NCBI GenBank assembly: GCA_965204345.1
Contig: OZ241981.1
Span: 1,856,001-1,920,000, forward strand
Direction: 5' to 3'
DNA from: Nitrosopumilus sp.
Lineage (GTDB): Archaea > Thermoproteota > Nitrososphaeria > Nitrososphaerales > Nitrosopumilaceae
Length of the DNA: 64,000 nt
Shown here in pieces: positions 14,741-50,600 of the stretch; position 1 is the stretch's first letter, and each line of letters begins with the position of its first letter. The notes under the pieces are model-generated. The model worked only from the letters and a program-made list of their open reading frames with translations, was not told where the DNA came from and searched no databases. A program made the position numbers and the translations under genes.

Positions 14741-15838
14741 TTACAGTGTCGGCTTTATTGCCCCTGAAAGGAGTGCATGGTCTGCTATGGTCAGTGCCAC
14801 AAGGGAGTCTACCACCGGTGGTGCCCTTGGCACTACGCACGGATCATGCCTGCCTTTGACCTGAAGGACTGCCTCTTTTTTGGTCTTGATATCTACAGTC
14901 TTTTGTTTTTGCGCAATTGATGATGCCGGCTTGAATGCGACCCTCATCGTAATTGGCATGCCGTTGGAAATTCCCCCCAAAATTCCCCCGGACCTGTTTG
15001 TTTCTGTTATTATTTTTCCTTTCCTTATTGCGTACAGGTCATTATTTTCTGAGCCGTAAAGCTCTGATCCCCTAAAACCTGAACCAAACTCAACTCCTTT
15101 TACTGACGGAATTGAAAAGATTGCCTTGCTCAAATCTGATTCCAATGAGCTGAAAATCGGTTCTCCTAGCCCTACTGGCACATTGGTTGTTACTGATTCA
15201 ATTATTCCCCCTAGCGAGTCTCCCATCTTTTTTGCATCTAGGATATCTGCCCTCATTATTTGTGCTGTTTTGTTCTCAGGGCATCTTACCTCGTTCTTGT
15301 AAATAGAACCAATCATATCTTCACTGAATTCTCCTTGCATCTTTGTTTTTCCAATCTGTGCTGTAAATGAATTCGTCTCAATACCAAGTGTGACTCTGAG
15401 CAGCTTTCTTGCAATGGCCCCGCCCATCACATGGGTTGCCGTCAGTCTCCCTGAAAACCTGCCTCCTCCCCTGTGATCATTGTAATGGTTGTATTTTGTC
15501 ATGGCCGGATAGTCTGAGTGCCCCGGTCTTAGTTTTGTTTTCAAATTCTCATAATCCCTTGATTTTTGATCACTATTGCAAACTATCATTGTAATTGGCG
15601 CACCTGTGGTATGGCCCCTGAATATTCCTGAAACAATCTCAACTACGTCTCCCTCCTTTCTCTGAGTTGAGATCATGTTTTGTCCTGGCCTTCTAAGGTC
15701 TAGCATCTTTTGAATATCTTTTTCATTTATCTCTAGTCCTGCAGGGCATCCGTCTAGTACTGCACCAATTGATCTTCCATGACTCTCACCAAAACTTGTC
15801 AATACAAGACGCTGACCAATAGAACTTCCCGGCAACAC
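14741..15838 (-). CDS. aroC: Chorismate synthase
   Basis: GESHG, RPGHSD, RGGGRFSGR, GRHDPCV. Confidence 0.97.
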   Translation of the reverse strand: MLPGSSIGQRLVLTSFGESHGRSIGAVLDGCPAGLEINEKDIQKMLDLRRPGQNMISTQRKEGDVVEIVSGIFRGHTTGAPITMIVCNSDQKSRDYENLKTKLRPGHSDYPAMTKYNHYNDHRGGGRFSGRLTATHVMGGAIARKLLRVTLGIETNSFTAQIGKTKMQGEFSEDMIGSIYKNEVRCPENKTAQIMRADILDAKKMGDSLGGIIESVTTNVPVGLGEPIFSSLESDLSKAIFSIPSVKGVEFGSGFRGSELYGSENNDLYAIRKGKIITETNRSGGILGGISNGMPITMRVAFKPASSIAQKQKTVDIKTKKEAVLQVKGRHDPCVVPRAPPVVDSLVALTIADHALLSGAIKPTL

Positions 15839-25126: not shown

Positions 25127-25933
25127 ATGGCAGCTGCTAAAAAGCAAACAAAAAAAGATCTTGAAGACAAGATTGCCAAATTAGAAGCAAAGATAAACCA
25201 ACTTTCTACTCAGCTAGCCTCAAAGCCGGCAGAGACTCCAAAACCTGCCGCCAAGGCAAAGCCAGCTGAAAGGCCTGCTGCAACAACCAAGCCAAAGGGC
25301 ACACTGCCCAAAGGAATGGATGCAAAGCCTGCTGAGACAAAGCCTGCTGAAAGGCCCGCTGCAACAACCAAGCCAAAGGGCACACTGCCCAAAGGATTTG
25401 AAGCAAAGCCAGCTGAGGCAAAGCCAGCTGAGGCAAAGCCTGCTGAGGCAAAGCCAGCTGAAAGACCTGCTGCAACAACCAAGCCAAAGGGCACACTGCC
25501 CAAAGGATTTGAAGCAAAGCCAGCAGATGTCCCAAAGCCGGCTGAAACAACAACGTCACAGCCACCTGCAACTGTGCAAGAAGCACTAGAGGATGCATAC
25601 ATGACTGCCCCGACATCTGACTTTCATCAGTACAGGGCCAAAGTCACAGGTTATTCACCAGCTCCCAACAGATACTTTGTGAGACTGACTGCTCCTGTGG
25701 GCAAGGTTCCAACCACAAATTGGAATCTCCAAAAATCTAAAGTGACCGGCTATACTGCATGCTCAAACCAGTACTATGCAACAAGGGCAAGACTTGCATA
25801 TCATCCTGCCGATAAAACATTTGGAAGTTTTAGCGGGATCAACATGAGCGTTGAGGGAATCAAGGCACAGCAAGCTCCTCCGACACCAGAGCCACCAAAG
25901 CCCAAAAGAGGCACACTACCAAAAGGTTTCTAA
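25127..25933 (+). CDS. Pro/Lys/Ala-rich low-complexity protein, paralogue A
   Basis: N-terminal coiled coil, AKPAE and KGTLPKG repeats, two KVTGY repeats. Core nearly identical to 33111-34181. Confidence 0.85.
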   Translation: MAAAKKQTKKDLEDKIAKLEAKINQLSTQLASKPAETPKPAAKAKPAERPAATTKPKGTLPKGMDAKPAETKPAERPAATTKPKGTLPKGFEAKPAEAKPAEAKPAEAKPAERPAATTKPKGTLPKGFEAKPADVPKPAETTTSQPPATVQEALEDAYMTAPTSDFHQYRAKVTGYSPAPNRYFVRLTAPVGKVPTTNWNLQKSKVTGYTACSNQYYATRARLAYHPADKTFGSFSGINMSVEGIKAQQAPPTPEPPKPKRGTLPKGF

Positions 25934-26394: not shown

Positions 26395-26506
26395 TTTGTA
26401 GCACAAACCCTTTGAGCTATACTTGAGACTGCAAGCTCACAGTGTTTGTAGCACAAACCCTTTGAGCTATACTTGAGACTGCAAGCTCACAGTGTTTGTA
26501 GCACAA
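26395..26506. repeat. 50-bp perfect tandem duplication (2.2 copies) just beyond the integrase 3' end
   Basis: Unit TTTGTAGCACAAACCCTTTGAGCTATACTTGAGACTGCAAGCTCACAGTG at 26395 and 26445, plus a 12-bp third start at 26495. Confidence 0.95.
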
Positions 26507-26555: not shown

Positions 26556-28247
26556 TCACACCTTCTCTGTACCTGACTCGTAGATTCTCTTAAGCTTGGA
26601 ACCGCACGCAGGACACTTTTGCCTGTCATGAACCGTGCTGCATGAAATACAGCAAAATTCCACAGACTTTGCAATGTTTCCCGAGCTTTTTCCAGACAGC
26701 TCGTCAATCTGTCTTTGCATTTGACGTAGCATCTCAGACTGTCTTTCTCTAAACATATCCTCTCTTTTCTTTATTGCAAGCTCAGTTAGAAGATCCTCCT
26801 TGAGCCTTCCAATCTCTGAGATTTTTTCCCTTAACTCTAGCTTTAGCTCGTCTGCATCATCCTTTCCGGATGTTACGCTTGTAAACTTTGTAAATAGGTT
26901 TAATCTCTGGGATGCCTTTGCATACTCTTTTCGCAGGGTCTCTGGGTATAGCTTTGCCTGCTTTCCATACGAGTCCTTTGGCTTGTGGCCAATGACATGG
27001 TCTGCAACGTCTATTCTGCATCCAGAGTCAATCAGTGTGGATTTTAGTAAATCCCTTAGATCATGCGAGTCCATCCTGTATTGTTTTCTGCCGTTTGTCT
27101 CCACAAATTTTTGAACTCCTGATCTTTGTGCAATTCTTGAGAATTTTGTAAACACCCATCTAGGTGAAATTGGCTTTTGAAACTTGGTTAGAAACAGCGG
27201 CTGGTCGTCTTGCATGCTGTTTCCTGTCTTTTCCTTTCTAAAATCAAGGTATTTCTGCAATATGTCTACTGCATCCCTCTCCAGAAATCCGACATGCTTG
27301 TAGTCTGTCTTTATCCGAGTTAATGTTATTGGGACTGGACATTTCTCCAGATCCCACGAATCGTGGTTCTCAGAGCCAAACCACTTTGCCATCTGCGGCC
27401 ATGCCTCATAGTTGAACCTGTCAACCAGAGTAGAGACATCTAGTCCCCTGTGAAACTTGCACAGAAACACGGCGTGTTCTGTAATTGATGGCTTTCCAAT
27501 AGTTAAAAACTTCATTAGATCTGAGATGGTCATGTCCTGCTCCTCTAGTTCGGTGCTATGTGATGTCTTTGGATTGTAGTTGACCTGCAGTAGATATTCG
27601 TTTTTTTCAAAATATGACACTATGGCACTCTTTATCAAATTCATGTATGTTGCCTTTTTGTGCGAATGCATCTCATCGAGAAGATACTGCTTTATGATTC
27701 TTGTTACGTTCTTTTGATCGGCAAAAGGCTGTTCTAAAAGTTTTAGCAGTGATTCCACATTCTCAAATTTCTTTTGTTCTGTCTTTTGTACAAATGTGTT
27801 ATCACTGGTAGTCTGAAGCATATTTATCGCAAAGGCCTTTTCGGATATCCATCTGTTAAACTTCCATAGATGATGCAGGTACTGCAATTGTGTGCTATTG
27901 ATACTGGTACTGATTTTGTTCTGGTTTTTGAATTTGCTTCCGCGGAGCTGTGATGTCCAAAAGGACACGGTATCCAGACTTTTGAACCATTGAGGAATTG
28001 TGGCATTATTTGTCCTTTGGATCTTTTTTGATTCGCATGCCACTTTTAGTGCATGTGTAATATCGTTGATGACATACCGGTCATTTTTAAATCCAAGAAT
28101 GTCCTTATGCTTGGAGAAAAGTGATTTTACAGTTACTGTATCACCCACCTCCAACTCTGATAGTATGGGTCTTAGCTTCTTACTGATTCCAACAACATTT
28201 TTGTCAATTTTTGAAACAACAATGTATTCGTATTGGATCTTTGACAT
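26556..28247 (-). CDS. Tyrosine recombinase/integrase with C-terminal coiled coil and Zn ribbon
   Basis: RIKT (Lys), SHDLRD (HxLR), VIGHKPKDSY (GH...Y), terminal CISC...CPACG. Confidence 0.85.
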   Translation of the reverse strand: MSKIQYEYIVVSKIDKNVVGISKKLRPILSELEVGDTVTVKSLFSKHKDILGFKNDRYVINDITHALKVACESKKIQRTNNATIPQWFKSLDTVSFWTSQLRGSKFKNQNKISTSINSTQLQYLHHLWKFNRWISEKAFAINMLQTTSDNTFVQKTEQKKFENVESLLKLLEQPFADQKNVTRIIKQYLLDEMHSHKKATYMNLIKSAIVSYFEKNEYLLQVNYNPKTSHSTELEEQDMTISDLMKFLTIGKPSITEHAVFLCKFHRGLDVSTLVDRFNYEAWPQMAKWFGSENHDSWDLEKCPVPITLTRIKTDYKHVGFLERDAVDILQKYLDFRKEKTGNSMQDDQPLFLTKFQKPISPRWVFTKFSRIAQRSGVQKFVETNGRKQYRMDSHDLRDLLKSTLIDSGCRIDVADHVIGHKPKDSYGKQAKLYPETLRKEYAKASQRLNLFTKFTSVTSGKDDADELKLELREKISEIGRLKEDLLTELAIKKREDMFRERQSEMLRQMQRQIDELSGKSSGNIAKSVEFCCISCSTVHDRQKCPACGSKLKRIYESGTEKV

Positions 28248-28276: not shown

Positions 28277-28672
28277 ATATATTGTAAACAGATAACTAAT
28301 GTAACATTTACAAAAAAGCAGCATACCATAACTGATGATATTACAACCTTTGAGTTTTGCTCTCCTTGGATTGCACTCAACCAGTCAAACTATGCAAAAT
28401 ACAACAATCTAGACAAGACATTTCGCAAAAAATTCCTTGAGCGTATACTTACTGCCAATCTGCTTAGCGCACTAAAGGGCCTTGGTTGCATGATTGACTA
28501 TGATCTGTATGTAAAGATAAAGTGGTTCAAGCACATGCCAGTTACGGCGCATGAGCATGGCTTTTCTGGTTTTTATGGAGCCTTTGTAGCTAATCTGTCA
28601 TTACCACAATATCTAGGCATAGGCAAAAGTGTCTCAAAAGGATTTGGCATACTAGAAAAAACACAACAATGA
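28277..28672 (+). pseudogene. cas6: 5'-truncated Cas6 (Cas6b, type I-B-like)
   Basis: Open frame without a start codon reads FEFCSPWIALNQSNY...RILTANLLSALKGLG...LPQYLGIGKSVSKGFG (Gly-rich loop). The N-terminal part is missing, with a stop at 28274-28276. Confidence 0.85.
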
Positions 28673-28718
28673 CAAAATTATCTTGTATTGATTTGGTTTT
28701 AGAAATATGTGGAGTTTT

Positions 28719-28826
28719 GTTTTGATCCTTATTATTTAGAGTTCTATCTATAGTTGATATGTGGGATTCACAATCGTACCATGAGATAAAGTTTCAATCC
28801 TTATTGTTTTAGAAATCCATTAAGAG
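28719..28826 (-). CRISPR. Degenerate CRISPR mini-array (2 repeats, 1 spacer)
   Basis: 28791-28826 GTTTCAATCCTTATTGTTTTAGAAATCCATTAAGAG differs at ~5/36 positions from the array repeat. 28719-28753 is more degenerate. Period is 72 bp, as in the main array. Confidence 0.75.
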
Positions 28827-28856
28827 CATGCATTCTAGTTTCATTGATCCCAATGT

Positions 28857-29066
28857 CTACAAAAATTTATCTTTTTCACGCTCTTCTTTAGAGAGTTCAT
28901 CTTGTTCATAATTTATGCCCTTAAAATAACTATGAATTTGGGATTGTTTTTTAATATACCATATTGCGATAAGCATTATACACACAGGAATACCCATAAT
29001 AGGCCACCATGAAGTCAACAATATAGCTAAAACAGGTGCTAAAAATAATCTCCGTGCTTTAATCAT
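28857..29066 (-). CDS. Small membrane protein (1-2 TM)
   Basis: Hydrophobic N-half (LFLAPVLAILLTSWWPIMGIPVCIMLIAIWYI) and charged C-terminus. Confidence 0.55.
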   Translation of the reverse strand: MIKARRLFLAPVLAILLTSWWPIMGIPVCIMLIAIWYIKKQSQIHSYFKGINYEQDELSKEEREKDKFL

Positions 29067-29449
29067 CTCTTACTTCAACTCTTGATGGAATTTTTGAAAT
29101 AATGTATTTTAATGTCACTACTAAACCAAGTTCAAAAATATTATCCCAGATTGTACCTGCATTCAATTAATATATTATCATGCCATCAGAGCTTGGGCAT
29201 CAAGACCTGAACCTGTCTATATTGTAAACAGATTCCCTCTGGCAATATCCTTTAGCGGAATGTCTGCATCGGAGAATCTCTTTGCAAACAGCTCGAAGAG
29301 TTTTGATGAACCTACAAAAAACGTTCCGTTGTGTATTGGATGGATTTTCGGCCCATGTCTCATTAATCTCAGTTAAGAATTTGACCCAATCCTGCCAAAC
29401 TGACAGAGTCAACGATCATAACTAATTTTAATATCTAATCTAATTAACT

Positions 29450-29950
29450 ATGCCAATTGGACCAGAAGTTTCCTCAAAGATAACTGTAAGTTTGGATTAG
29501 CAAGAAGCATTTGATAAAATAATTGGCATTATCAAAAAAGATACAAAGTTTTCCATACAGTCACAAGTTAGGCCAACAAAGATAACTGCATATGGTGGAC
29601 GTGGACCATCAAAACTTACAAAGGCAACGCTAGGAGCCGTAACCTTTGGGACGATTGCTATACTATCACACTACTCATCTCCAAAACGAATTGCCACCAT
29701 CTTCCTCAAGAAGCATACCAATGCAACAAAAATTACAATCCAAACAGAGGGATGGACAGATGGAGATTCAAGAGTCGCAACTTTTGTAAATATAATAATT
29801 GAGGAATTGATGAAATATGAAATAGATGATGATGAAAAAATCGTACAAAATGTACAAAGTGATGATCCGATAACAATTCTTAAGACAAGATATGCAAAGG
29901 GTGAAATAACAAAAGAAGAATTTGAGGAAATGAAAAAGAATTTAGAATAA
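29450..29950 (+). pseudogene. SHOCT-domain membrane-associated protein with in-frame TAG at codon 17
   Basis: ATG at 29450, TAG at 29498-29500. The same frame continues to DPITILKTRYAKGEITKEEFEEMKKNLE (SHOCT) and TAA at 29950. Confidence 0.8.
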
Positions 29951-30279
29951 AAAAGTCTCGTGATTGCCTTAAGAAAAGAATTTACAAAAATCGATTTTGA
30001 TTTTTTGGACTGGCTCTAGTTTCAGCAAAGCTGAAATCCACGATCAAATAATCATCATCAGGCATTTTGGGAAATCCAAGCAAGTACTATAAGAAAAAGA
30101 ATTTGAAAAACAAGTGACACAGAACGTCTTTTCTAAGTACTCATGCCGGATGAACTTGGACATGTCTAAAACTATCGGCAGGACACAATTTATGAAAATT
30201 CTACACTACACTCAAAAAAAAAACAAACGTATCGGCAGCTTCTCAAAAACGAAATCTGCATTTCTAGTTCCTTACAAGA

Positions 30280-30669
30280 GTTTCAATCTTTATAATTTTA
30301 GAATTCTATTCAAACAAGGGATGGATATGCCATTAGGATGAGTATGATAGAGTCTCAATCTTTATAATTTTAGAATTCTATTCAGTATGGAATAAATTGG
30401 ATGTAACAATGGATACAAAGTCTCAATCTTTATTATTTTAGAATTCTATTCAGACTTAGGTGTCCATGTTGCAGTAATATGTTACGAACGTTTCAATCTT
30501 TATTATTTTAGAATTCTATTCAGTTGAAAACTATGACATTAGCAAGGGTGGCATAGAAAACGTTTCAATCTTTATAATTTTAGAATTCCCCCACAGCATC
30601 AACTGTGTGACCATATGCAATGGCATAGAAAACGTTTCAATCTTTATAATTTTAGAATTCTATTCAGAG
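30280..30669 (-). CRISPR. CRISPR array, 6 repeats / 5 spacers
   Basis: Repeats start (+) at 30280, 30352, 30420, 30490, 30562, 30634. Core is GTTTCAATCTTTATAATTTTAGAATTCTATTCAG. The minus strand ends in the ATTGAAAC handle; leader and cas4 lie to the right. Confidence 0.97.
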
Positions 30670-30746
30670 CCTCACTTTTTCCTGCATTTGCATAATCAAG
30701 GACATATTTTAACTGTTTTTTCCTGCACGTGACAATTATCTGAAAA
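30670..30746 (-). promoter_or_regulatory. CRISPR leader with two TGCAGGAAAAA motifs
   Basis: Between the cas4 stop and the first repeat. TTTTTCCTGCA at 30676-30686 and 30717-30727. Confidence 0.7.
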
Positions 30747-31334
30747 TTATTGAGCGCTATTTAATGAGCCGACATCGCATACCTTGCGATAGCAGCAATC
30801 ATGGCACTTGCTGCCATAACTGGCATCAGGTATCAGGCCATCACCAATTACCTGCCGGGTCTGCTCTAGCATTTCCAAGGCAAACTTGCGCATCTTCTCA
30901 TCAATGTTTACCGTAACCTGCTTTCTGGTATTGTTGCTTGCATATATTAAAATCCCTACCTTTACGGGTTTGCCAAATGTCTCCTCTAAAGCAACTGCAA
31001 GCAATCCGAGCTGAACCCTTACTGTGTCATAAATTTTTACATATTTTGAGTACTTTCTCTCCACTATGATTATCTGGCTGTCAGTTATTATGGCGTGGTC
31101 TACAATGCCTACAAAGTCATGCTTTGATGAGTACATCTTGAGTGAAGTAACCTTTTTTCCGTCTAAATTTTTTGGAATATAGTCTCTGTTTATTGCCTCT
31201 GATGTCTTGTGATATTTTTTGCCAGCAGATACTGCCCCCCGTTTCTGCTCATACTGTGCAAGACCTGCAACTGTCTCAAAGTATGTAAATCTGTGACAAA
31301 AGACATATTCGACTACCATAGTTATATTGATCAT
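30747..31334 (-). CDS. cas4: CRISPR-associated Cas4
   Basis: YVFCHR, GIVD, VERK, C-terminal KCHDCCYRKVC Fe-S ligands; follows cas2. Confidence 0.93.
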   Translation of the reverse strand: MINITMVVEYVFCHRFTYFETVAGLAQYEQKRGAVSAGKKYHKTSEAINRDYIPKNLDGKKVTSLKMYSSKHDFVGIVDHAIITDSQIIIVERKYSKYVKIYDTVRVQLGLLAVALEETFGKPVKVGILIYASNNTRKQVTVNIDEKMRKFALEMLEQTRQVIGDGLIPDASYGSKCHDCCYRKVCDVGSLNSAQ

Positions 31335-31634
31335 TTAAAACACCATTGATGGCCTGTTGCCTGTTACATACTCTGCATCAAAGTCCCTTCCCAAGGTTAT
31401 GACCTTGCCAAAGCACTGGCTGCAGCTGGCAATTAGGTAAAAAGAGTCCTCCTCCTCGTTTATGACCGCCTTTATCTTCTCTAGCAGATCTGTTTTTTGC
31501 TGGTTGTTCATAATGCCACAAAAAACACTCTTTTGGATTCTGGTAAATCCCGCATCCTTTAAGATTTGGATGGTTGATTGGCGGGTGCTATCATCTACAA
31601 TATCGTATATTGCATAGTAAATCATCCTGCTCAT
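31335..31634 (-). CDS. cas2: CRISPR-associated Cas2
   Basis: YAIYDIVDD, GFTRIQKSVFCG, DSFYL; ATGA overlap with the cas1 stop. Confidence 0.95.
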   Translation of the reverse strand: MSRMIYYAIYDIVDDSTRQSTIQILKDAGFTRIQKSVFCGIMNNQQKTDLLEKIKAVINEEEDSFYLIASCSQCFGKVITLGRDFDAEYVTGNRPSMVF

Positions 31635-32701
31635 GATGCTGCTGCCCTGTCCAGTCTTAGCAAGTCTGCTGTCATATCCTTGCAGTACTTCCACACTGTC
31701 TTTTCCACTATTTTTTGGCAGTCTTGCTTATAGGATGAGATCAGACTGGTCCTGCCAGTCTTGCTTAGTTGCATGGATGCAGTTACTGTCAAATCTTTTG
31801 AAAACCACCCATCATTTACAATTTTTCTATTAAACAGTGATAGCAATACCCTGTCAATTACCGGTCTGCACGGCTCTATCAGGTCATAGGCAAGTGTCGG
31901 TTTGCCATAATGGTCCTTGTGATAGAATCCTGAATTGGGATCCAGTCCGCAGAGAATTATCACCTTCTCCACACTAGAGTATGTCAGGCCATACATGTAG
32001 TTTAGTGCCACGTTGAATTCATCGAGTCCCGGATTCTGCGTTCTTTTTTTAAACTGCCATTTCTTGGCAAGGCATGCAGATATCATCTGAAAGTATAATG
32101 TGGCACAGCTGCCTTCATGCCCTAGAAACTGCTGTGCGTAGTGCTTTTGGTACGGTTTTATTTTTATGACAATTATAGATGAAGATTATATGAGGTCTTA
32201 TTGTAGTGCGTAGTGCTTTTGGTACGGTTTTATTTTTATGACAGTCTCTGTGTCTGCAATAAACGATGCTGCATCGTGCAGCTTTGTTCTTAGCTGCTCT
32301 TGCTTTCTGTTTTGCCTTAAGGTTGTGAGGACCTGCCTCTGCTTTGATAGTTTTTCTGATAACAGCTTTTTTGTTAGACTGAATGCAAATTTTGTATCTG
32401 CATTTAGGTACTGTTGCCGCCTTATCTGAGTCTGGCGTCCAAGTGCACTTGACCAGATGCGTGCCAAGGGCTTGCCGGACCAGGATGTAATTACTAGCTG
32501 TATCTGCCTTTCTATGCACAGTCTGATTGCAGACGTGCTGATCATTGCATTTGAGCTGACCAGTATCGTGTCTGTCTTTTTAGCTGGAATTTCCGCGTCC
32601 TTTTGGTCCGGTGTTTTTATTACAAATCGCTCACGCCTTCTGTGTATGCTAGAGCCATGCGTGGTCAGTTCAATTATCATTTGTCTTGATCTTTGAGACA
32701 C
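31631..32701 (-). pseudogene. cas1: Cas1 interrupted by a 72-bp in-frame insertion carrying stop codons
   Basis: Both halves are in the same frame. Removing 72 bp gives a 332-aa Cas1 with LGHEGSCATLYF, NVALNYMY, GLDPNSGFYH and LAYDLIEPCR intact. Confidence 0.95.
32134..32243. repeat. 38-bp direct duplication flanking 34 unique bp (repeat-spacer-repeat geometry) inside cas1
   Basis: GTGCGTAGTGCTTTTGGTACGGTTTTATTTTTATGACA at 32134-32171 and 32206-32243; insert ATTATAGATGAAGATTATATGAGGTCTTATTGTA. Confidence 0.97.
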
Positions 32702-33110: not shown

Positions 33111-34181
33111 ATGGCAACAAAAAGCAAGGCAACAAAAAAAGATCTAGAGACAAAAATTGCTGAATTGGAGGCAAAGTTAAGCAAATTATCAACACAACTT
33201 AAAGCCAAACCAAAACCTGCTGAAACCAAACCTGCTGAAACCAAACCTGCTGAAACCAAACCTGCTGAAACCAAACCAGGTAAAGCAAAGCCGGCAGAAG
33301 CCAAACCCGCTGAAAGACCTGCTGCTGCAACAACCAAGCCAAAGGGCACACTGCCCAAAGGATTTGAAGCAAAGCCGGCAGAAGCCAAACCGGCAGAAGC
33401 CAAACCGGCAGAAGCCAAACCCGCTGAAAGACCTGCTGCTGCAACAACCAAGCCAAAGGGCACACTACCCAAAGGATTTGAAGCAAAGCCAGCAGATGTC
33501 CCAAAGCCGGCTGAAACAACAACGTCACAGCCACCTGCAACTGTGCAAGAAGCACTAGAGAATGCATACATGACTGCCCCGACATCTGACTTTCATCAGT
33601 ACAGAGCCAAAGTCACAGGTTACTCACCAGCTCCCAACAGATACTTTGTGAGACTGACTGCTCCTGTGGGAAAGGTTCCAACCACAAATTGGAATCTCCA
33701 AAAATCTAAAGTGACCGGCTATACTGCATGCTCAAACCAGTACTATGCAACAAGGGCAAGACTTGCATATCATCCTGCCGATAAAACATTTGGAAGTTTT
33801 AGCGGGATCAACATGAGCGTTGAGGGAATCAAGGCACAGCAAGCTCCTCCGACACCAGAGCCACCAAAGCCTGCAAAGGGAAAGCTCCCAAAAGGCATGG
33901 AACAGGCACAGCAAACTCCACCACCACAGCAACAACAGCAGTCCGCATATGGCGGTGATGCAAAGTCTAGAGAAGAAAAACTCGCAGACTATGAGGCAGA
34001 ATACTTGCAAAGAATAGAACAGCAAAAAATAGATGATGAGAAGGCCTACCAAGAACTGCTTGAATCCGAAGCAAAGGCTAGGCAAACAGCTAGTAGGGGT
34101 ACTTTGCCAAAAGGCTTTGAACCAAAACCAGAACCCAAGACACCAAAAGAGTCTAGGGGAACACTGCCAAAAGGTTTCTAA
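33111..34181 (+). CDS. Pro/Lys/Ala-rich low-complexity protein, paralogue B (longer C-terminus)
   Basis: Same core as 25127-25933; 15-bp KPAET/KPAEA repeats; extra acidic helix. Confidence 0.85.
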   Translation: MATKSKATKKDLETKIAELEAKLSKLSTQLKAKPKPAETKPAETKPAETKPAETKPGKAKPAEAKPAERPAAATTKPKGTLPKGFEAKPAEAKPAEAKPAEAKPAERPAAATTKPKGTLPKGFEAKPADVPKPAETTTSQPPATVQEALENAYMTAPTSDFHQYRAKVTGYSPAPNRYFVRLTAPVGKVPTTNWNLQKSKVTGYTACSNQYYATRARLAYHPADKTFGSFSGINMSVEGIKAQQAPPTPEPPKPAKGKLPKGMEQAQQTPPPQQQQQSAYGGDAKSREEKLADYEAEYLQRIEQQKIDDEKAYQELLESEAKARQTASRGTLPKGFEPKPEPKTPKESRGTLPKGF

Positions 34182-38657: not shown

Positions 38658-41600
38658 ATGATCCCGCTGCTAGTGGGAGGGGGAACTCTGATATCATCTG
38701 CACCCCCTGCATTTGCCCAGTCTATATCCATTGACGATGTCACCATTGCCGAGGGTGAATCTCTTTCGCATCCGATAACACTCTCTGGTTTCGGACCCAC
38801 TCCTGATATCTTTCTCTCATCTATTGTGGGTTCAGATTCTTCGATTCCTCTGTCCATATCTCAAGGTGGAATAATCACCGCTGACATATCTTTTGATGTA
38901 GTGGCTCATCCCTCAACTGGCACTGACATAAGAACAAACTTTGACCTCTCTAATGACATTCAGATACGCATAGGTGTAGATGGTAGTGGTGCTTTTAGGA
39001 CTAGTGCTTTTACACTGACTGTCACAGATGTCAACCGTATTCCTGCAGGAACTGCACCTAGTTTTTCATTGAATATTGGTGAGACACACACAGGCAACCT
39101 AGCTAGCAACATTGCAGATCCGGACGGTGATACCCTGTCCTATACCCTGACTAACAATGCATGCCAGTCATCTAGCGTAACTGTAAATCCGACGGGTGCC
39201 TTTACCGTTACTGCAACAAATAACAACGCGGTGACATATCCTGAAGACTGTAGCTTTACCTTTGAAGTGACAGACGGCTCTGCAACAGAGCAGTTTACAT
39301 CCTCATACCGTGTGTTATCTACTGTATCCAACTCCCTGCCACCAATACCTGCCTCCGTACCATCTGCAACAGTCGAATATCCAAACCTAACTGTTCCTCA
39401 AATTTCACTGCGTGATCACTTTGTGGATCCCGAATTTGACACGCTGTCTTTCAATAATTTCTCAAGCTGCGCTGCTGGTGTCACCTTGGATGTTACACTG
39501 GTAAACGCCACTATTATGCAAATTAATCCCGTCGCAAGTGATGTCGGCACTACATGTGTGGTATCCTTTGACATCTCAGACGGCACGACGCAAAGCACGG
39601 GACAGCCATATTCTTTTGAGCTGGTAATCACAGAAAACCCCGCACCCGTACGTACTGCAACACCGCTGGTAATTGATGTTCCAGCAGACCAGCCTCAGAC
39701 ATCTACAATTAACATTAACGATTATTACACAGATGACAAGCCACTATCAATAAATTCTGTCACCTCTGATGACTGTTCATTTAGACAGGTCATCGTGGAT
39801 GTTGGGATAATCGAGTTTACGCTTCTCGCTAATGATCCCGAGGGGGTAACATGCACAGTAGAGATGGATGTCTCTGATGGAAACCGATCGATAACTGCAA
39901 CGCTCACAATAAACCATCTGGAACGTGCAACCGCATCTCTGAATACAGATGCAAGTGATCCGACCAACCTTGAGGCCATACCATATACGGTAACATTTGG
40001 CAGAGATGTCACAGGTTTTGAGCTGGATGATATTATTGTGCGTCATGATGATGTCATCATCAGATCTGGCCTGATAACTTCCATTGCGGGAGAGGGAGAC
40101 GAATACACCTTTACAGTCACACACAGCTTCACAGAAGGACTGCTAGTAGTAATCGTATCTCAAGATGCAGTTGTTGGCGGCAATGATTCTGCTGTATCTC
40201 GTATTACGGTGGACAGGATAAAGCCAACAGTATCCATTGCACCTGTCGATGGTACCACCACAGGTGATGACCCGGTAACGTTTACTGCAACATTTAGCGA
40301 GGACGTTAGAAACTTTGTGCTAGGTGACATTACAGTATCTGGTACCGCAAACGACGGCAGTCCAGTAGCATCCAACCTTCTTGGAACAGGAAGTGTATAC
40401 ACATTTGATGTTGCTCGAGGCTCTACAGACGGAACCGTAATTGCCTCAATTGCAGCAGACGTAGCAGAAGATCTTGCAGGCAACCTCAATGAGGCATCTG
40501 CTCCGGTCACTGCCACCATATACACTGTTCCGGTGCCAACTATCACCTCCGTCAGGGGTCTCATTGATAGCACTGATCCGTCTGAAACATTTAGAGTAAC
40601 ATTTAGCAACCCTGTCACAGACTTTGTTGCCGATGACATTCTCATAACTGGTACCGCAAACGGCGGCAATCCTGAAATATCAAACTTTGCAGGTTCCGGA
40701 GATACGTACACCTTTGATGTCGCAGGTGGGGTCTCAGATGGAAGCGTAATAATATCCATACCTGCAGGCGTTGCAGTACATCACTTATCAGGTGCAGACA
40801 ATGCGGCATCTGCTCAGTTTGACTTTCTCTTTCTCTTTTTTGGCCCAACCACTACCATTAGTACGACTGCCGATCCCCTGACTCCTCTTCATACAGTACC
40901 ATTTATCGTGACATTCAGTCAGGATGTCTTCCCTCTTACCCTAAGTGACATTACAGTAACTGGTACCGCAAACGGCGGCAACCCGGTTGCATCAAACCTT
41001 CAGATACTTAATTCCCGTACAACTAGCGATGGTGAAACTGTTGCCCCGAGATTTAGCTTTGATGTTGTCCGCGGATCCTCAGACGGAACCGTAACTGTAT
41101 CCATACCTGCAGCCGCGGCAACAAGTAGTAATTTTGATTCCAATATTGCATCCAACGAGATCACCGTCACAATAGACACCACCATACTGCCACCGGTTCC
41201 TGCAGTAGCGCCAGTCATAAACCTAGAGCACCCTGTGCTAGACCCACACCAAGAGTTCTCACTTGATGACCACTTTACAGATCCTCAAGGTGATACGCTA
41301 TCGTACACCAATATATCAGATGACTGTACTGGAACCCTGACGCAGCAGTCACCAGCTGGCTCTGATACGTTCAGGTTTGTATCCTCTGCTGCTGAGACAT
41401 GTACGCTCTCCTTTGACATCTCTGATGGTACTGGTGCCAGCACAGGCGGTGCATACACTGTAAACATATCTGTGGTATTGGATGCCGCACCAGTACGTAC
41501 TGCAACACCCCTGACAGTTGATGTCCTATCAAGCCAGCCCAGAAAGGTTACACTTGACATTAACAATTATTACACAGATACCCAGACACTGACACTAGTC

Positions 41601-44600
41601 TCTGCCCCCACATCTAGTGACTGTACGGACTTTGTCTCTACCATCCTGTCAAACGGACAGTTTGACTTTGAGCCTATCAATGCTTTTGCCAGTGCATCAA
41701 CATGTACAGTACAGGCAACTTTCTCTGATGGAAACAGGCATACAACTGCAGAGCTTACAATAAACTATCTGGATGCTGCAACCGTATCCCTAGATACAGA
41801 TGTAACTGATCCTACCAACTCTGAGGCCATACAATTTACGGCAACATTTGGCAGTGACGTCACAGGATTTATCGCAGATGACATTGTAGTGACAATTGAT
41901 GGAAACCCCGCCACACCTGGCAGCCTGATATCTGCATTTAGTGGAAGCGGTGCTGACTATGCCTTTACAGTAACACACGGCATCACCGCAGAAGGACAGC
42001 TAACAGTTACCATACCTGCCAATGCGGTAGCAGAGGGTAACACAGCAAGTACTGTCACTACATTCACAGTGGACAGAATAGTCCCAACTGTAACCATCAC
42101 ACCTGCCGATGGCACTACCACCAGCGATGACCCAGTAACGTTTACGGCAACATTTAGCGAGGACGTTGTGAACTTTGAGATAGGTGACATTACAGTAACT
42201 GGCACTGCCAATGCCACCAATCCTGTAGCATCCAACCTTCTTGGAACAGGCAGTGTCTACACCTTTGATGTTGCTCGCGGCACCACAGACGGAACCGTAA
42301 CTGCATCAATAGATGCAGGTGTACTAGCAGACCTTGCAGGCAATCTTAACACTGCATCTAATTCAGTTACAGTTACCATAACTACCAACACACTGCCACC
42401 GGTTCCTGCTGTAACACCTGGCATAACCCTACAGCACCCAGTACTGGCCGCACACCAAGAGTTCTCACTTGATGACCACTTTACAGATCCCGAAGGTGAT
42501 ACGCTATCATACACCAATCCATCAGATGACTGTACTGGAACCCTGACGCAGCAGCCACCAGCTGGCTCTGATACGTTCAGGTTTGTATCCTCTGATGCTG
42601 AGACATGTACGCTCTCCTTTGACATCTCTGATGGCACTATTGCCAGCACTGGCAGTGCCTACACTGTAAACATATCTGTGGTATTGGATGCCGCACCAGT
42701 ACGTACTGCAACACCGCTGACAGTTGATGTACCTGTAGACCAGCCCCGAAAGGTTACACTTGACATTAACAATTATTACACCGATGACGGCACACTGACA
42801 CTAGTCTCTGCCCCCACATCTAGTGACTGTACGGACTTTGTCTCTACCATCCTGTCAAACGGACAGTTTGACTTTGAACCTATCAATGCTTTTGCTAGTG
42901 CATCAACATGTACAGTACAGGCAACCTTCTCTGATGGAAACAGGCACACAGATACAGAGATTACAATAAACTATCTTAGCCTTCCAACCGTAACTGTTGC
43001 AGAGGGTGAATCTCTTTCACATCAGGTATCATTACCTGCTAACTTTTTCCCCGCTGATGTCGGTCTCATAAGCACCGGTCATCGTTATCTAAGCATAAAT
43101 TTGGATGGACTAGTCACAGGCAACATACCTTTTGATGTAGTGACTCATCCCCCAACTGGCACCAGCATAAGGGATGACTTTGACCTCTCTACTGAAATCC
43201 AGGTAGAATATCAACTAGATGATGGTGCTGATATCATTACTGGGTCATTTACACTGACTGTCACAGATGTCAACCGTGTTCCTGCTGGAACTGTACCACC
43301 TAGTTTTTCATTTAATATTGATGAGACACACACAGGCAACCTAGCTACCAACATTGCAGATCCGGACGGTGATACCCTGTCCTATACCCTAGATAACAAT
43401 GCATGCCAGTCATCTAGCGTGACTGTAAATCCGACGGGTGCCTTTACCGTTACTGCAACGCCAAACAACGCGGTGACATATCCTGAAGACTGTAGCTTTA
43501 CCTTTGATGTGACAGACGGCTCTGCAACAGAACAGTTTACATCCTCATACCGTGTGTTATCTACCGTAACTAACCTACTGCCACCAATACCTGCCTCCGT
43601 ACCATCTGCAACAGTCGAATATCCAAGCATAACAGATCCGCAAATTTCACTGCGTGACCACTTTGAGGATCCCGAATTTGACACGCTGTCTTTCAATAAT
43701 TTCTCAAGCTGCGCTGCTGGTGTCACCTTGGATGTTACACTGCTAGACAATCATAACATGCAAATTGCTCCCTTCGCACGTGATGTCGGCACTACATGTG
43801 TGGTATCCTTTGACATCTCAGACGGCACGACGCAAAGCACGGGGCAGCCATACTCTTTTGAGCTGGTAGTCACAGAAAATCCCGCACCCGTACGAACTGC
43901 AACGCCTCTGGTAATTGACGTCCTATCAGACCAGTCTAGGACAGTTACAATTGACATTAACGACTATTACACAGATGACAAGTCACTGTCAATATTTAGT
44001 ACTATAACCTCTGATGACTGTACATTTAGATCTACCTCACCAGACAGTGGCGTGTTTACATTTGAGGCCATAGAAGACTCTACTGGCGGGCTAACATGCA
44101 CAGTACAGACAACCTTCTCTGATGGAAACTACCTTACACCTGTAGCGTTTACAATAAACTATCTGGATCGTACATCCGTATCTCTGACTACGGATGTAGG
44201 CGATCTCACCAACCTTGAGGCCATACCATATACGGTAACATTTGGCAGAGCTGTCACAGGATTTGATCAGGATGATATTATAGTGCGTATTGATGAAACC
44301 ACCACCACACCTGGCCTGATAACTTCCTTTGCGGGAGAGGGAGCCCAATACACCTTTACAGTCACACACGGCCTCACAGAAAGCCTGCTAGTAGTAGTCA
44401 TACCTGCTGATGCAGCTGATGGTGGCAGTGCTAGTGATATATCTCGTATTACGGTGGACAGGGCAAACCCCACAGTATCCATTACGCCTGCCGATGGCAC
44501 CATCACTAGTGATGACCCAGTAACATTTACTGCAACATTTAGCGAGGATGTCCAGAACTTTATCCTATCTGACATTACAGTAACAGGCACCGCAAACGGC

Positions 44601-47600
44601 ACCAATCCGGCAGCAGCCAACTTTGTAACAGTTGATGCCCGCACATACACCTTTGATGTTGCTCGCGGAACCTCAGACGGAACCGTAACTGCATCCATAG
44701 CAGCAGATGTAGCAACAGACCTTGCAGGCAACCTCAACGCCGCATCTGCCCCGGTTACCGTCACCATAGACACCACTGTCCCATCAGTATCCCTGGACAC
44801 AACTGCTGCTGATACTACCAACTCTGAGGCCATCGAATTTACTGCAACATTTGACAGGGATGTCACACAATTCGTCCAAGAGGACATTGTCGTGGCAATT
44901 AACGGAACCGACACATCTGGCCTGATATCTGCATTTAGTGGAAGCGGTGCTGACTATGCCTTTACAGTAACACACGGCATCGCCACACAAGGTGAACTAG
45001 CAGTAACAATACCTGACGGTGTGGTAGCAGAGGGCAACACGGCAAGTACTCATACACTTACCGTGGACAGAATAAGACCATCAGTATCCATTACACCTGC
45101 CGATGGTACCACCACCAGTGATAACTCAGTAACATTTACTGCAACATTTAGCGAGGACGTCGAAGACTTTGAACTAACTGACATTACAGTAACGGGCACT
45201 GCAAACGGTGGTGTTCCGGCAGCAGCCAACTTTGTAACAGTTGATGCCAGCACATACACCTTTGATGTGGCTCGAGGCTCTACAGACGGAACCGTAATTC
45301 CATCCATTGCAGCAGACATAGCAACAGACCTTGCAGGCAACCTCAACACTGCATCTAATTCAGTTACAGTTACCATAACTACCAACACACTGCCACCAGT
45401 TCCTGCTGTAACACCGGGCATAACCCTACAGCATCCTGTATTGGCTGCACACCAAGAGTTCTCACTTGATGCCCACTTTACAGATCCCGAAGGTGATACG
45501 CTATCATACACCAACATATCAGATGACTGTACTGGAACCCTGACGCAGCAGCCACCAGCTGGCTCTGATACGTTCAGGTTTGTATCCTCAACTGCTGAGA
45601 CATGTACGCTCTCCTTTGACATCTCTGATGGCACTGATGCCAGCACTGGTGCTGCCTACACTGTAAACATATCTGTGGTATTGGATGCCGCACCAGTACG
45701 TACTGCAACACCGCTGACAGTTGATGTCCTATCAAGCCAGCCCAGAAAGGTTACACTTGACATTAACAATTATTACACAGATGACGGCACACTGACACTA
45801 GTCTCTGCCCCCACATCTAGTGACTGTACGGACTTTACCTCTACCATCCTGTCAAACGGACAGTTTGACTTTGAGCCTATCAATGCTTTTGCTGGTGCAT
45901 CAACATGTACAGTACAGGCAACCTTCTCTGATGGAAACAGGCATACGACTGCAGAGCTTACAATAAACTATCTGGATGCTGCAACCGTATCCCTAGATAC
46001 AGATGTAACTGATCCTACCAACTCTGAGGCCATACAATTTACGGCAACATTTGGCAGTGACGTCACAGGATTTATCGCAGATGACATTGTAGTGACAATT
46101 GACGGAAACCCCGCCACACCTGGCAGCCTGATATCTGCCTTTAATGGAAGCGGTGCTGACTATACCTTTACAGTAACACACGGCATCACCGCAGAAGGAC
46201 AGCTAACAGTAACCATACCTGCCAATGCGGTCGTAGAGGGTAACACAGCAAGTGCTACGACTACACTCACAGTAGACAGAATAGTCCCAACTGTAACTAT
46301 CACACCTGCCGATGGTACTACCACTGGCGATGACCCAGTAACGTTTACGGCAACATTTAGCGAGGACGTCGAGGACTTTGAACTAACTGACATTACAGTA
46401 ACTGGTACCGCAAACGGCGGCAGTCCTGAGGCATCCAACCTTCTTGGAACAGGAAGTGTCTACACCTTTGATGTTGCTCGAGGCTCCACAGACGGAACCG
46501 TAATTCCATCCATTGCAGCAGACGTAGCAACAGATCTTGCAGGCAACTCCAACACCGCATCTGCCCCAGTTACTGTCACAATAGACACCGTTCCCCTAAC
46601 AGTCTCTGTGACTACAACTGTAGGAGAGAACACCAACTCTGATACGGTAACATTTACGGCAACATTTAGCAAGGACGTTGAGGACTTTATCCTTACTGAC
46701 ATTACAGTAACTGGTACCGCAAACGGCGGCAGTCCCGCAGCATCCAACCTTCTTGGAACAGGAAGTGTCTACACCTTTGATGTTGCTCGAGGCTCCACAG
46801 ACGGAACCGTAATTCCATCCATTGCAGCAGACGTAGCAACAGACCTTGCAGGCAACCCCAACACCGCATCTGCCCCAGTTACTGTCATAATAGACACTCT
46901 TGCCCCAACTGTCTCTGTCAGTTCATCTACAGGCAGTAGCACCGGACTTGATACGGTACCATTTAGAGTAACATTTGACGAAGACGTTGAGAACTTTGTC
47001 CTAGATGACATTACAGTAGCTGGTACCGCAAACGGCGGCACCCTCACAGCATCCGGCTTTGCAACAGTTGATGCCCGCACATACACCTTTAACGTTGCAG
47101 GCATATCTTCTGACGGAACAGTAATTGCATCCATTGCAGCAGATGTGGCAACAGACCTTGCAGGCAACCCCAACACCGCATCTGCTCCAGTTACCGTCAC
47201 CGTAGACACCACTGTCCCATCAGTATTCTTGGACACAACTGCTACTGATCCTACCAACTCTGATACCGTCAACTTTACTGCAACATTTGACGAGGATGTC
47301 ACAGGATTTGTGCAATCTGACATCGTTGTAGCAATTGACGGAACCCCAGCAGCTAATAGCCTGATAACTGCCTTTAGTGGGAGCGGTGCTGACTATACCT
47401 TTACAGTAACACACGGCATCGCCGCAGAAGGACAGCTGACAGTAACCATACCTGACGATGCGGTAGTAGAGGGCAACACAGCAAATACTCGTACACTTAC
47501 AGTGGACAGAATAGATCCAACTGTAACCATCACACCTGTCGATGGTACTATCACTGGCGATGACCCCGTAACCTTTACGGCAACCTTTAGTGAGGATGTT

Positions 47601-50600
47601 GAGAACTTTGTCCTAGCTGACATTACAGTAACTGGTACTGTCAACGGCGGCAGTCCAGTAGCATCCAACCTTCTTGGAGACGGCAGTGTCTACACCTTTG
47701 ATGTTGCTCGCGGCTCGACAGACGGAACCGTAACCGTATCAATTGCAGGAGATGTGGCAAGAGATCTTGCAGACAATCCCAACACTGCATCTAATTCAGT
47801 TACCATAACTATTACAACACTGCCTCCGGTTCCTGCGGTATCGCCTGGCATAACCCTGCAGCATCCTGTATTAGACCCACACCAAGAGTTCTCACTTGAT
47901 GACCACTTTACAGATCCTAATGGTGATACGCTATCATACACCAACATATCAGATGACTGTACTGGAACCCTGACGCAGCAGCCACCAGCTGGCTCTGATA
48001 CGTTCAGGTTTGTATCCTCAGATGCTGAGACATGTACGCTCTCCTTTGACATCTCTGATGGCACATATACCAGCACAGGCGGTGCATACACTGTAAACAT
48101 ATCTGTGGTATTGGATGCCGCACCAGTACGTACTGCAACACCGCTGACAGTTGATGTCCTATCAAGCCAGCCCAGAAAGGTTACACTTGACATTAACAAT
48201 TATTACACAGATACCCAGACACTGACACTAGTCTCTGCCCCCACATCTAGTGATTGTACGGACTTTACCTCTACCATCCTGTCAAACGGACAGTTTGACT
48301 TTGAGCCTATCAATGCTTTTGCCAGTGCATCAACATGTACAGTACAAGCAACTTTCTCTGATGGAAACAGGCATACAACAGCAGATCTTACAATAAACTA
48401 TCTGGATGCTGCAACCGTATCCCTAGATACGGATGTAACTGATCCTACCAACTCTGAGGCCATACCATTTACGGCAACATTTGGCAGTGACGTCACAGGA
48501 TTTATCGCAGATGACATTGTAGTGACAATTGATGGAAACTCCGCCACACCTGGCAGCCTGATAACTGCCTTTAGTGGAAGCGGTGCTGACTATGCCTTTA
48601 CAGTCACACACGGCATCGCCGCAGAAGGACAGCTAGCAGTAACCATACCTGCCAATGCGGTAGTAGAGGGTAACACAGCAAGTGCTACGACTACACTCAC
48701 AGTGGACAGAATAGATCCAACTGTAACTATCACACCTGCCGATGGTACTACCACTGGCGATGACCCAGTAACGTTTACGGCAACATTTAGCGAGGACGTT
48801 GAGAACTTTGAGCTAGCTGACATTACAGTAACTGGCACTGCCAATGGCGGCAGTCCAGTAGCATCCAACTTTGTAACCCTTGATGCCCGCACATACACCT
48901 TTGATGTTGCTCGCGGCACCACAGACGGAACCGTAATTGCGTCCATTGCAGCAGACGTAGCAACAGACCTTGCAGGCAACTCCAACACCGCATCTAATTC
49001 AGTTACCGTCACCGTAGACACCACTGTCTCATCAGTATCCCTGGACACAACTGCTGCTGATCCTACCAACTCTGAGGCCATCGAATTTACTGCAACATTT
49101 GACAGGGATGTCACACAATTCACCCTAGAGGACATTGTCGTGGCAATTAACGGAACTGACACATCTGGCCTGATATCTGCATTTAGTGGAAGCGGTGCTG
49201 ACTATGCCTTTACAGTAACACACGGCATCACCACACAAGGTGAACTAACAGTAACAATACCTGCCAATGCGGTCGTAGAGGGCAACACGGCAAGTACTCA
49301 TACACTTACCGTGGACAGAATAAGACCATCAGTATCCATTACACCTGCCGATGGTACCACCACCAGCGATAACTCAGTAACATTTACTGCAACCTTTAGT
49401 GAGGACGTCGAGGACTTTGAACTAGCTGACATTAGAGTAACTGGTACTGCCAATGGCACCAATCCAGTAGCATCCAACCTTCTTGGAACAGGAAATGTCT
49501 ACACCTTTGATGTTGCTCGAGGCACCACAGACGGAACCATAATTCCATCCATTGCAGCAGACGTAGCAACAGACCTTGCAGGTAACCTCAACACTGCATC
49601 TAATTTAGTTACAGTTACCATAACTACCAACACACTGCCACCAGTTCCTGCTGTAACACCGGGCATAACCCTACAGCATCCTGTACTGGCCGCACACCAA
49701 GAGTTTTCACTTGATGCCCACTTTACAGACCCCGAAGGTGATACGCTATCATACACCAACATATCAGATGACTGTACTGGAACCCTGACGCAGCAGCCAC
49801 CAGCTGGCTCTGATACGTTCAGGTTTGCATCCTCTGCTGCTGAGACATGTACGCTCTCCTTTGACATCTCTGATGGCACTGATGCCAGCACTGGTGCTGC
49901 CTACACTGTAAACATATCTGTGGTATTGGATGCCGCACCAGTACGTACTGCAACACCGCTGACAGTTGATGTCCTATCAAGCCAGCCCAGAAAGGTTACA
50001 CTTGACATTAACAATTATTACACAGATACCCAGACACTGACACTAGTCTCTGCTCCCACATCTAGTGACTGTACGGACTTTACCTCTACCATCCTGTCAA
50101 ACGGACAGTTTGACTTTGAGCCTATCAATGCTTTTGCCAGTGCATCAACATGTACAGTACAGGCAACCTTCTCTGATGGAAACAGGCATACAACAGCAGA
50201 TCTTACAATAAACTATCTGGATGCTGCAACCGTATCCCTAGATACGGATGTAACTGATCCTACCAACTCTGAGGCCATACCATTTACGGCAACATTTGGC
50301 AGTGACGTCACAGGATTTATCGCAGATGACATTGTAGTGACAATTGATGGAAACTCCGCCACACCTGGCAGCCTGATATCTACCTTTAGTGGAAGCGGTG
50401 CTGACTATGCCTTTACAGTCACACACGGCATCACCGCAGAAGGACAGCTAACAGTAACCATACCTACCAATGCGGTAGTAGAGGGTAACACAGCAAGTGC
50501 TACGACTACACTCACAGTAGACAGAATAGTCCCAACTGTAACTATCACACCTGCCGATGGTACTACCACTGGCGATGACCCAGTAACGTTTACGGCAACA

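Follow-up and report, generated by a model that had tools for sequence, protein, structure and literature searches.

Integration of spacers by Cas1–Cas2 in unusual places is known from a few CRISPR systems. According to the texts that cite Nivala, Shipman and Church (2018, Nat Microbiol), Escherichia coli that over-produces Cas1–Cas2 integrates spacers off target with a duplication of repeat length ('neo-CRISPR'), and the evidence in two other species is called circumstantial by the same texts. In the type I-B system of Haloarcula hispanica, the cuts are set by the leader–repeat junction and by rulers that act on motifs of the repeat, and altered motifs in engineered repeats lead to duplications of 29–33 instead of 30 base pairs (bp) (Wang et al. 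2016, PMC4872114); the discussion of that paper reports that E. coli K-12 Cas proteins acting on a non-K-12 array shift the duplicated window by 2 nucleotides (nt) towards the leader. The off-target plasmid sites used in vitro by Cas1–Cas2 from Pyrococcus furiosus are repeat-like (Grainy et al. 2019, PMC6698737), and cas4 mutants of Sulfolobus islandicus acquire slipped or flipped spacers which are unable to guide interference (10.1101/486738). The locus described here is a short CRISPR array next to cas4, cas2 and cas1, in a window (the whole stretch that was analysed) of 64,000 nt from Nitrosopumilus sp. (GCA_965204345.1, OZ241981.1, positions 1,856,001–1,920,000 of the forward strand). The genome of this sponge-associated Nitrosopumilus, 2.12 Mb, is referred to as G000 and its chromosome contig as C1; one of the sequencing runs used below, X6, is a sponge metagenome.

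The newest unit of this array has the structure of a staggered integration that is out of register with the repeats, and scars of the same form interrupt cas1 and lie elsewhere in the chromosome. We put at about 0.88 the probability that mis-integration by Cas1–Cas2 produced both the array unit and the scars. The original prediction, which was made from the letters of the window, saw in the newest unit a second footprint of an imprecise integrase; this footprint is larger than first thought, with cas1 and about 19 further sites.

The element is a CRISPR array by its regular, near-identical repeats, its unique spacers and the adjacent cas1, cas2 and cas4, with a leader in between. The six repeat copies are spaced by 72, 68, 70, 72 and 72 nt from start to start. 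A 24-nt core of the repeat is found six times in the window and never in 100 shuffles, and in the whole genome it occurs only in the array and as one degenerate copy 1.5 kb away (28794–28817 of the window). The repeat has no match at E ≤ 1 to the CRISPR-DR families of Rfam over 28500–30800, which is no requirement for a CRISPR array. The CRISPR RNA sense is the minus strand, on which the ends of the repeat read ATTGAAAC.

Trailer-end repeats often carry changes, and a point change is present here in the repeat that is farthest from cas4. Nitrosopumilus metagenome-assembled genomes with 60–61% identity in Cas1 have the same order cas1–cas2–cas4–leader–array, the same orientation of the repeats, repeats of 36–37 nt and periods of 71–74. 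This layout and the changed far-end repeat show that the end at 30634 is leader-proximal and holds the newest unit, as had been assumed in the original prediction.

In this unit, a 40-nt stretch is repeated with 100% identity at a start-to-start distance of 72, on either side of 32 nt (coordinates in Table 1), exactly the 40-bp duplication and 32-bp insert, 72 bp in total, that had been described. The period of the unit, 72, is the sum of a 36-nt repeat and a 36-nt spacer. The fifth repeat copy (30562–30588) ends after GAATTC, its last 9 nt being gone, and a 13-mer that forms the spacer-side part of the duplication (30549–30561, identical to 30621–30633) precedes both the fifth and the sixth repeat copies. 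One staggered integration would account for both the truncated fifth repeat and the 13 nt common to the two leader-proximal spacers, as the original prediction had it.

The two spacers concerned come from different sources. Positions 30585–30621 (ATTC, the 32 nt of the insert and T) match exactly, over 37 bp, C1:1209414–1209450, 677 kb away on the same chromosome. The donor lies in a 222-codon open frame which belongs to no Pfam family, and the matching stretch is 89% identical in three relatives; since the relatives keep it, the donor is that gene and the spacer is self-derived. The older spacer is matched over 30524–30559 by a foreign contig of X6, between unrelated flanks, which identifies its protospacer; an exact-pattern scan of viral and metagenome collections gave no match to it. 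The foreign sources of this spacer and of the cas1 insert described below are known from loose ends in X6 only. The 13-mer had been expected to belong to the older protospacer alone, and this is what we find: the match to the chromosomal donor stops one base into the 13-mer, the X6 source contains 11 of its 13 nt, and no single protospacer spans insert and 13-mer. The remaining 2 nt (30560–30561) are identical to the pair of bases with which the sequence behind the next older repeat begins, and are best read as a carry-over from the previous integration.

Both new junctions (30559–30614 and 30592–30660) are covered by exact unitigs in runs X1 and X5, from two studies, which answers the concern about mis-assembly that had been raised together with the prediction; each of these unitigs pairs repeat with insert sequence in a way that does not recur in the rest of the genome. 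Run X5 has no cover over about 30385–30558, and this gap is not interpretable.

The donor shares ATTC (4 nt) with one flank of the insert and T (1 nt) with the other, so that the duplication is of 35–40 bp, the insert of 32–37 bp and the displacement from the regular position of 9–13 nt. The attack had been placed about 9 nt inside the first repeat: it is indeed inside the repeat, and its position is widened to 9–13 nt by the 4 + 1 shared nt. Two observations favour a 36/36 event displaced by 12–13 nt. The four inserts with exact donors in a relative, G014 (see below), measure 36–38 bp, with duplications of 35–38 bp, and the two shortest apparent inserts of G000 (30 and 32 bp) are those with the longest donor microhomology (9 and 5 nt). 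Most likely, then, a duplication and an insert of normal size, 36 and 36, were displaced by 12–13 nt; we think that in this event the ruler worked and the anchor failed. None of the 171 repeat copies in the relatives' arrays is truncated, so that out-of-register insertion is not routine.

What may have caused the slip is a more speculative matter. When set against the X8 allele and the repeat R3, the leader-proximal repeat R6 is without the first two bases of the repeat (GT). Run X8 and part of X6 have two extra bases at the leader–repeat junction (30667–30669; AC put in behind 30667), which restore the full GTC start of the first repeat; they are absent from the window's strain, from X1 and from X5. 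Among the older units, the leader-side ends of the repeats differ by 2–3 nt. It is conceivable, at rather long odds, that the junction shortened by 2 bp (loss of the GT of CT^GT, where ^ marks the boundary) weakened the anchor and so caused the slip; against this counts that the preceding unit appears to be leader-anchored, with a 36-bp stagger. Docking on the second AATT-like pentamer of the repeat was also considered and rejected, because the shift to be expected from it, 8 nt, falls short of the 9–13 nt that the sequence allows.

The same A–B–A structure, at period 72, splits the only cas1 gene of the genome. The limits of this footprint are 37–38 bp for the duplication and 34–35 bp for the insert, and the gene has two in-frame stops, both of them in the insert. 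Removal of the 72 bp gives an open frame of 332 residues which aligns end to end with the Cas1 of G014. The empty allele exists: a 2523-bp contig of X5 joins 32133 to 32206, while X1 and X6 carry the insert. The depths of the X6 contigs, which allow a rough reading only (about 92 for the insert unitigs, 206–256 for the flanks), hint at a mixed population in this run; X8 has no cover over the cas1 scar, a gap that is not interpretable. The protospacer of the insert is found on a foreign contig of X6, between unrelated flanks; there is no source in the organism's own genome, and an exact-pattern scan of viral, metagenome and genome collections gave no match. On the minus strand, the target in cas1 reads GAGACT^GTC and the leader–repeat junction of X8 reads GAGGCT^GTC, a match at 8 of 9 positions; the leaders of three relatives likewise end in RCT. 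Since X5 has both array junctions yet an uninterrupted cas1, we infer that the array event came first and that the cas1 event followed, in part of the population.

Scars of this form were searched in G000 as isolated exact direct repeats whose length is 25 bp or more but below their period, at periods of 30–300 and with no other such repeat within 400 bp. The genome contains 73 isolated repeats, of which 25 have periods of 70–74 and 7 periods of 75–79, against 0–5 in every other 5-bp bin; when up to 4 mismatches in 34 are allowed, period 72 alone counts 15. Selection of duplications of 30–45 bp at periods of 66–80 gave 25 candidates, of which 20 count as distinct events, including the one in cas1; the five removed are a low-complexity case and four additional copies within repeated elements. 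Their duplications measure 31–42 bp (median 37.5) and their inserts 30–38 bp (median 35), at periods of 69–75, with 72 in 7 events. All inserts differ from one another. Besides the insert of the array, 4 of the 20 have donors on the organism's own chromosome (94–100% identity), and one event other than that of the array shows 4 + 5 nt of microhomology. Uninterrupted paralogous sites are present in the same genome for 6 of the 20 events, one of them identical at 85 of 85 positions and one at 87 of 88.

The scars share a motif at their ends. At 18 of the 40 ends, the trinucleotide CT[GC] occurs 0–3 nt inward of the repeat boundary, for an expectation of 10.8% (P = 4e-8), and at least one such end is seen in 15 of the 20 events. 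A motif derived de novo reaches 3.92 bits, the average over 200 control sets being 2.53 ± 0.21 and the maximum 3.5. By eye, the far end is often AC^, as in the repeat's own end. In one scar (G000:C1:486377–486486), the duplicated stretch is made of the final 23 nt of tRNA-Ser(cga) and 15 nt downstream; the tRNA gene is left whole, and the T-arm of this tRNA is similar to the end of the repeat. Several scars are in frame in long open frames (686 vs 662, 313 vs 290 and 1101 vs 1076 codons). Four different scar sites lie in separate copies of a multi-copy element of at least about 2.4 kb (C1 about 1763400–1765800, with copies near 1729500–1730800, 1848700–1851100, 1401000–1414200 and others), of which other copies are uninterrupted. 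Outside the array, contig C1 of G000 contains no two consecutive units, so that no scar has grown into a neo-CRISPR array. The gene that carries the scar at C1:1546947 was not found in 40 other genomes of the genus.

Two relatives serve as controls. In G014, whose contig C1 (1.86 Mb) was scanned whole, 41 isolated repeats are found, 16 of them at periods of 70–74 and mostly at 73, a value that fits the type I-B repeat of this genome, which is 37 nt long. For the motif test, one low-complexity case of the 16 was dropped and one event at period 67 was added: CT[GC] is present at 13 of 32 ends, for 8.9% expected (P = 1.5e-6). Five of the inserts have donors on the same contig, four of which are exact over 37–38 nt. 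Two pairs of events, compared by eye, have the same site in different copies of an element and different inserts, and these repeated hits in the element copies point to a site preference. The other relative, G010, has no match to Cas1; the part that was scanned (960,076 of 1,360,076 bp, 71%) contains 18 isolated repeats, none of scar form, those at periods 70–74 being two of low complexity and one of 56 bp around a 16-bp gap.

Some further observations were made on G014. It contains other arrays at C1:88793–98200 and 1756044–1760500, whose repeats of 36–37 nt and of 30 nt are unlike the type I-B one. One of its scars, at C1:1747638 (about 15639–15750 of locus L030), is located about 400 bp upstream of the type I-B cas1, and another, at C1:1737748, lies at a tRNA-like 3' end and is similar to the tRNA-Ser(cga) scar of G000.

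We propose the following sequence of events. The array would have started as leader, repeat and old spacer. Two attacks, staggered by roughly the usual distance (35–40 bp, most likely 36), would then have taken place 9–13 nt (most likely 12–13) too far from the leader, one inside the first repeat and the other 12–13 nt into the spacer that was then the first. The fragment joined there would be of spacer size and a copy of chromosomal DNA of the same cell, and gap filling would have duplicated part of the repeat and part of the spacer on both sides of it. The expected product is a full repeat, the 13-mer, the insert, a repeat lacking its leader-side end, the 13-mer again and what remains of the old spacer. 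Where no effector is left, a self-derived spacer should cost nothing. The same enzyme, with an intact ruler and a relaxed choice of target, would insert DNA of spacer size elsewhere than in the array, at about 20 sites which resemble the leader–repeat junction (...CT^G/C...AC^), and one such insertion would have split cas1 and ended adaptation in the lineage. The assignment to this particular Cas1–Cas2 is by correlation, and is supported by the single cas1 of the genome and by G010, which has no match to Cas1 and no scar in the 71% that was scanned.

Several points weigh against mis-integration by Cas1–Cas2, or limit how far it can be taken. All the evidence is at the level of sequence. The junction unitigs are short (30 + 26 and 29 + 40 letters), just under the 31 + 31 bridging rule, and no pre-integration allele of the array was seen, which unitigs at k = 31 cannot resolve. 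The attack points in the array are ambiguous by 5 nt, and no allowed position has the CT^G/C motif of the off-target sites. The flanks of ten donors (five in G000 and five in G014) give no consistent protospacer-adjacent motif, TT at −3/−2 in about half of the oriented donors being only suggestive. As for the controls, no single integrase can be named as the source of the scars in G014, where four to five cas1 genes coexist with three types of array, and G010 differs from G000 by more than cas1, since it is smaller and was scanned at 71% only.

The alternative that survives best, with a small probability, is that Cas proteins were not involved and that the structures result from repair or replication, by template switching or microhomology-mediated insertion, or from a mobile element of a kind not yet known with a target duplication of about 37 bp. 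Repair polymerases do produce templated insertions, and the microhomologies (4 + 1 nt at the array insert, 4 + 5 nt at another event) speak for this alternative. However, the sizes of duplications and inserts are distributed as narrowly as those of repeats and spacers, and the period tracks the sum of repeat and spacer in each genome, 72 in G000 and 73 in G014. In addition, the ends of the scars resemble the leader–repeat junction, no scar is found in the scanned 71% of G010, where cas1 is missing, and inserts that are all different mean that no element is being copied.

Another scenario, to which we give about half the weight of the former, is that two acquisitions in register were followed by a local rearrangement (deletion with gene conversion, or unequal recombination), the truncated repeat and the shared 13-mer being due to chance. 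Arrays do lose and shuffle units through recombination between repeats, and the ends of the repeats vary by 2–3 nt between units here. Recombination between repeats, however, cannot copy 13 nt of a spacer across a new spacer, at least three separate events would be needed to mimic one staggered integration, and the unit is exactly 72, the same A–B–A form being found in cas1 and at 19 sites that have no repeats to recombine. Last, an assembly artefact is the least probable explanation of all: CRISPR arrays assemble poorly and the supporting unitigs are short, but a collapsed or mis-joined repeat region would not give junction unitigs that are exact in two studies, nor separate source sequences for the insert and the old spacer, nor a cas1 scar that two studies have and a third lacks. 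The narrow sizes, the period that follows the sum of repeat and spacer in each genome, the unique inserts with sources of their own, the motif at the ends and the empty alleles are left unexplained by all three alternatives. Mis-integration by Cas1–Cas2 is therefore the reading we retain.

Table 1. Positions in the 64,000-nt window of the array, the scar in cas1 and the neighbouring genes
Feature	Position	Strand	Remarks
CRISPR array	30280–30669	-	6 repeats of 36 nt (one truncated), 5 spacers; newest unit at the high-coordinate end, beside the leader
Leader	30670–30746	-	77 bp, from the cas4 stop to the first repeat; minus-strand end ...GAGGCT
Leader-proximal repeat R6	30634–30669	-	full length by the count of the original prediction
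Duplication, leader-side copy	30621–30660	-	13 nt of old spacer + 27 nt of repeat
Insert (new spacer)	30589–30620	-	at least 32 nt; source-derived sequence perhaps 30585–30621 (37 nt)
Duplication, older copy	30549–30588	-	holds the truncated repeat 30562–30588, without 9 leader-side nt
Old spacer S4	30524–30559	-	36 nt by its protospacer (X6 loose ends at 30524 and 30559); includes 11 nt of the 13-mer
cas1 target duplication, first copy	32134–32171		38 bp
cas1 insert	32172–32205		34 bp; X6 protospacer match 32171–32205 (35 bp)
cas1 target duplication, second copy	32206–32243		38 bp; period 72
cas4	30747–31334	-	intact, 195 aa; Pfam/NCBIfam above curated cut-offs
cas2	31335–31694	-	intact; Pfam/NCBIfam above curated cut-offs
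cas1	31631–32701	-	sole cas1 of the genome; Pfam/NCBIfam above curated cut-offs; broken by a 72-bp scar with two in-frame TAA codons
Truncated cas6b	28349–28672	+	C-terminal domain only
Decayed second array	28685–28826	+	degenerate repeats 28719–28753 and 28791–28826 (spacing 72), with a fragment before them

What is left at this locus of a type I-B system is an orphaned, decaying adaptation module, not a working system of that type. Its subtype is known from G014, where the homologous adaptation genes adjoin cas3, cas5b, cas7/Csh2 and a full cas6b, which makes the G014 locus type I-B. In G000, searches for cas3, cas5, cas7 and cas8 found none of them: there is no match to the RAMP and DevR families, the best score for the Cas3 core is 74.3 bits for a cut-off of 102.45, and tblastn with Cas3, Cas5, Cas7 and a 571-aa protein of G014 gives no match, the G014 proteins recovering nothing but Cas1, Cas4 and, of Cas6b, the C-terminal half. 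The chimeric guide announced by the original prediction is therefore correct as a sequence and has no user, since the effectors are gone and only the C-terminal domain of cas6b is left.

The decayed second array, with two or three degenerate copies of the repeat, follows the truncated cas6b. A gene for a 563-aa tyrosine recombinase of the phage integrase family (26556–28247, minus strand) adjoins this remnant, and a perfect 50-bp tandem repeat (2.2 copies, 26395–26506) overlaps its 3' end; it may be that an integrated element replaced the effector genes. In another genome, G007, there are arrays whose repeat is almost identical to that of the window, yet no match to Cas1.

As for the older part of the array, other contigs of X1 and X8 share variants with repeats 3 and 4 (30420–30523) and then run into different spacers; loose ends are seen at 30455–30457, 30461, 30486 and 30490, where the depth of X8 is very high. 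It seems that the samples contain, side by side, related strains whose arrays are larger or different.

Elsewhere in the window, a 6040-codon open frame (38658–56780, plus strand), with blocks of 309–312-bp tandem repeats at 46338–47210 and 52965–54836, probably codes for a giant surface protein. The open frames at 33111–34181 and 25127–25933 (both on the plus strand) contain KPAE-rich tandem repeats of 15 bp and of 81–114 bp, with the common unit '...TTKPKGTLPKGFE...'.

In kind, what is described here is a natural variant of the known off-target integration by Cas1–Cas2. What is new is a natural out-of-register event in an array, of which both protospacers are identified, a cas1 split by the reaction that it catalyses, with the intact allele in hand, and dozens of scars across two Nitrosopumilus genomes. 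In the literature that was searched (without supplements), there is no report of many natural off-target scars in one genome, nor of a cas1 split by such a scar. We consider it likely, with less assurance than for mis-integration itself, that the CRISPR integrase of Nitrosopumilus is a persistent insertional mutagen with a sequence bias, active at CT^G/C-type sites throughout the chromosome. It would leave about 9 scars per Mb, between a quarter and a third of them with inserts drawn from the DNA of the cell itself, would return to one site in different copies of a repeated element, would put in-frame insertions of 23–25 residues into open genes, would duplicate the 3' ends of tRNAs and could end its own activity via cas1. 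If so, off-target integration has an evolutionary cost that can be measured and is one way in which CRISPR is lost in nature, and the scars are a free in vivo map of the target rules of the integrase.

Off-target integration is known mainly from over-producing E. coli and from reactions in the test tube, and the natural evidence is called circumstantial in the texts consulted. The present data add to it a before-and-after pair, with cas1 whole in one run and split in two more, and a pair of controls, one relative with cas1 that is scarred and one without cas1 that has no scar in the part scanned. The choice of attack sites in type I-B systems, the frequency of damage to the host and the self-destruction of adaptation modules after the loss of interference become questions that can be tested on natural data.

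The comparison with described systems places the locus more precisely. Stern et al. are said to have described, in 2010, self-targeting spacers in degraded CRISPR loci. As in those loci, a self-derived spacer is present here where interference is lost; beyond them, the loss can be traced gene by gene, and the integrase has been inactivated by its own kind of reaction. In the S. islandicus mutants too, imprecise adaptation gives spacers that are unusable for interference, but there 'slipped' means that the protospacer is chosen a few nt off the motif next to it, whereas here it is the target in the array that is off register. The off-target sites of P. furiosus Cas1–Cas2, like the present ones, have features in common with the repeat; for the present sites, these are CT^G/C at one end and, in many cases, AC^ at the opposite end. 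Its targets were plasmids in vitro, whereas ours are chromosomal scars fixed in nature.

Regarding the array event, the system of H. hispanica is of the same subtype, and in its engineered repeats the leader-side cut stays fixed and the far cut moves by 1–3 bp, whereas here both cuts have moved together by 9–13 nt, in a natural array. The shift obtained with E. coli K-12 proteins likewise creates a chimeric new 'repeat', made of neighbouring sequence and repeat; that shift is of 2 nt towards the leader and is due to non-cognate proteins, whereas the present one is of 9–13 nt away from it and would be the work of the cell's own proteins. Neo-CRISPR, last, has in common with the scars that spacer-sized DNA lies outside an array with a target duplication of repeat length. 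Unlike the E. coli case, the present one is natural, archaeal and derived from a type I-B system, with about 20 scars in the genome and 16 in a relative, and it includes a scar within cas1 itself and a near-cognate, out-of-register event in the array.

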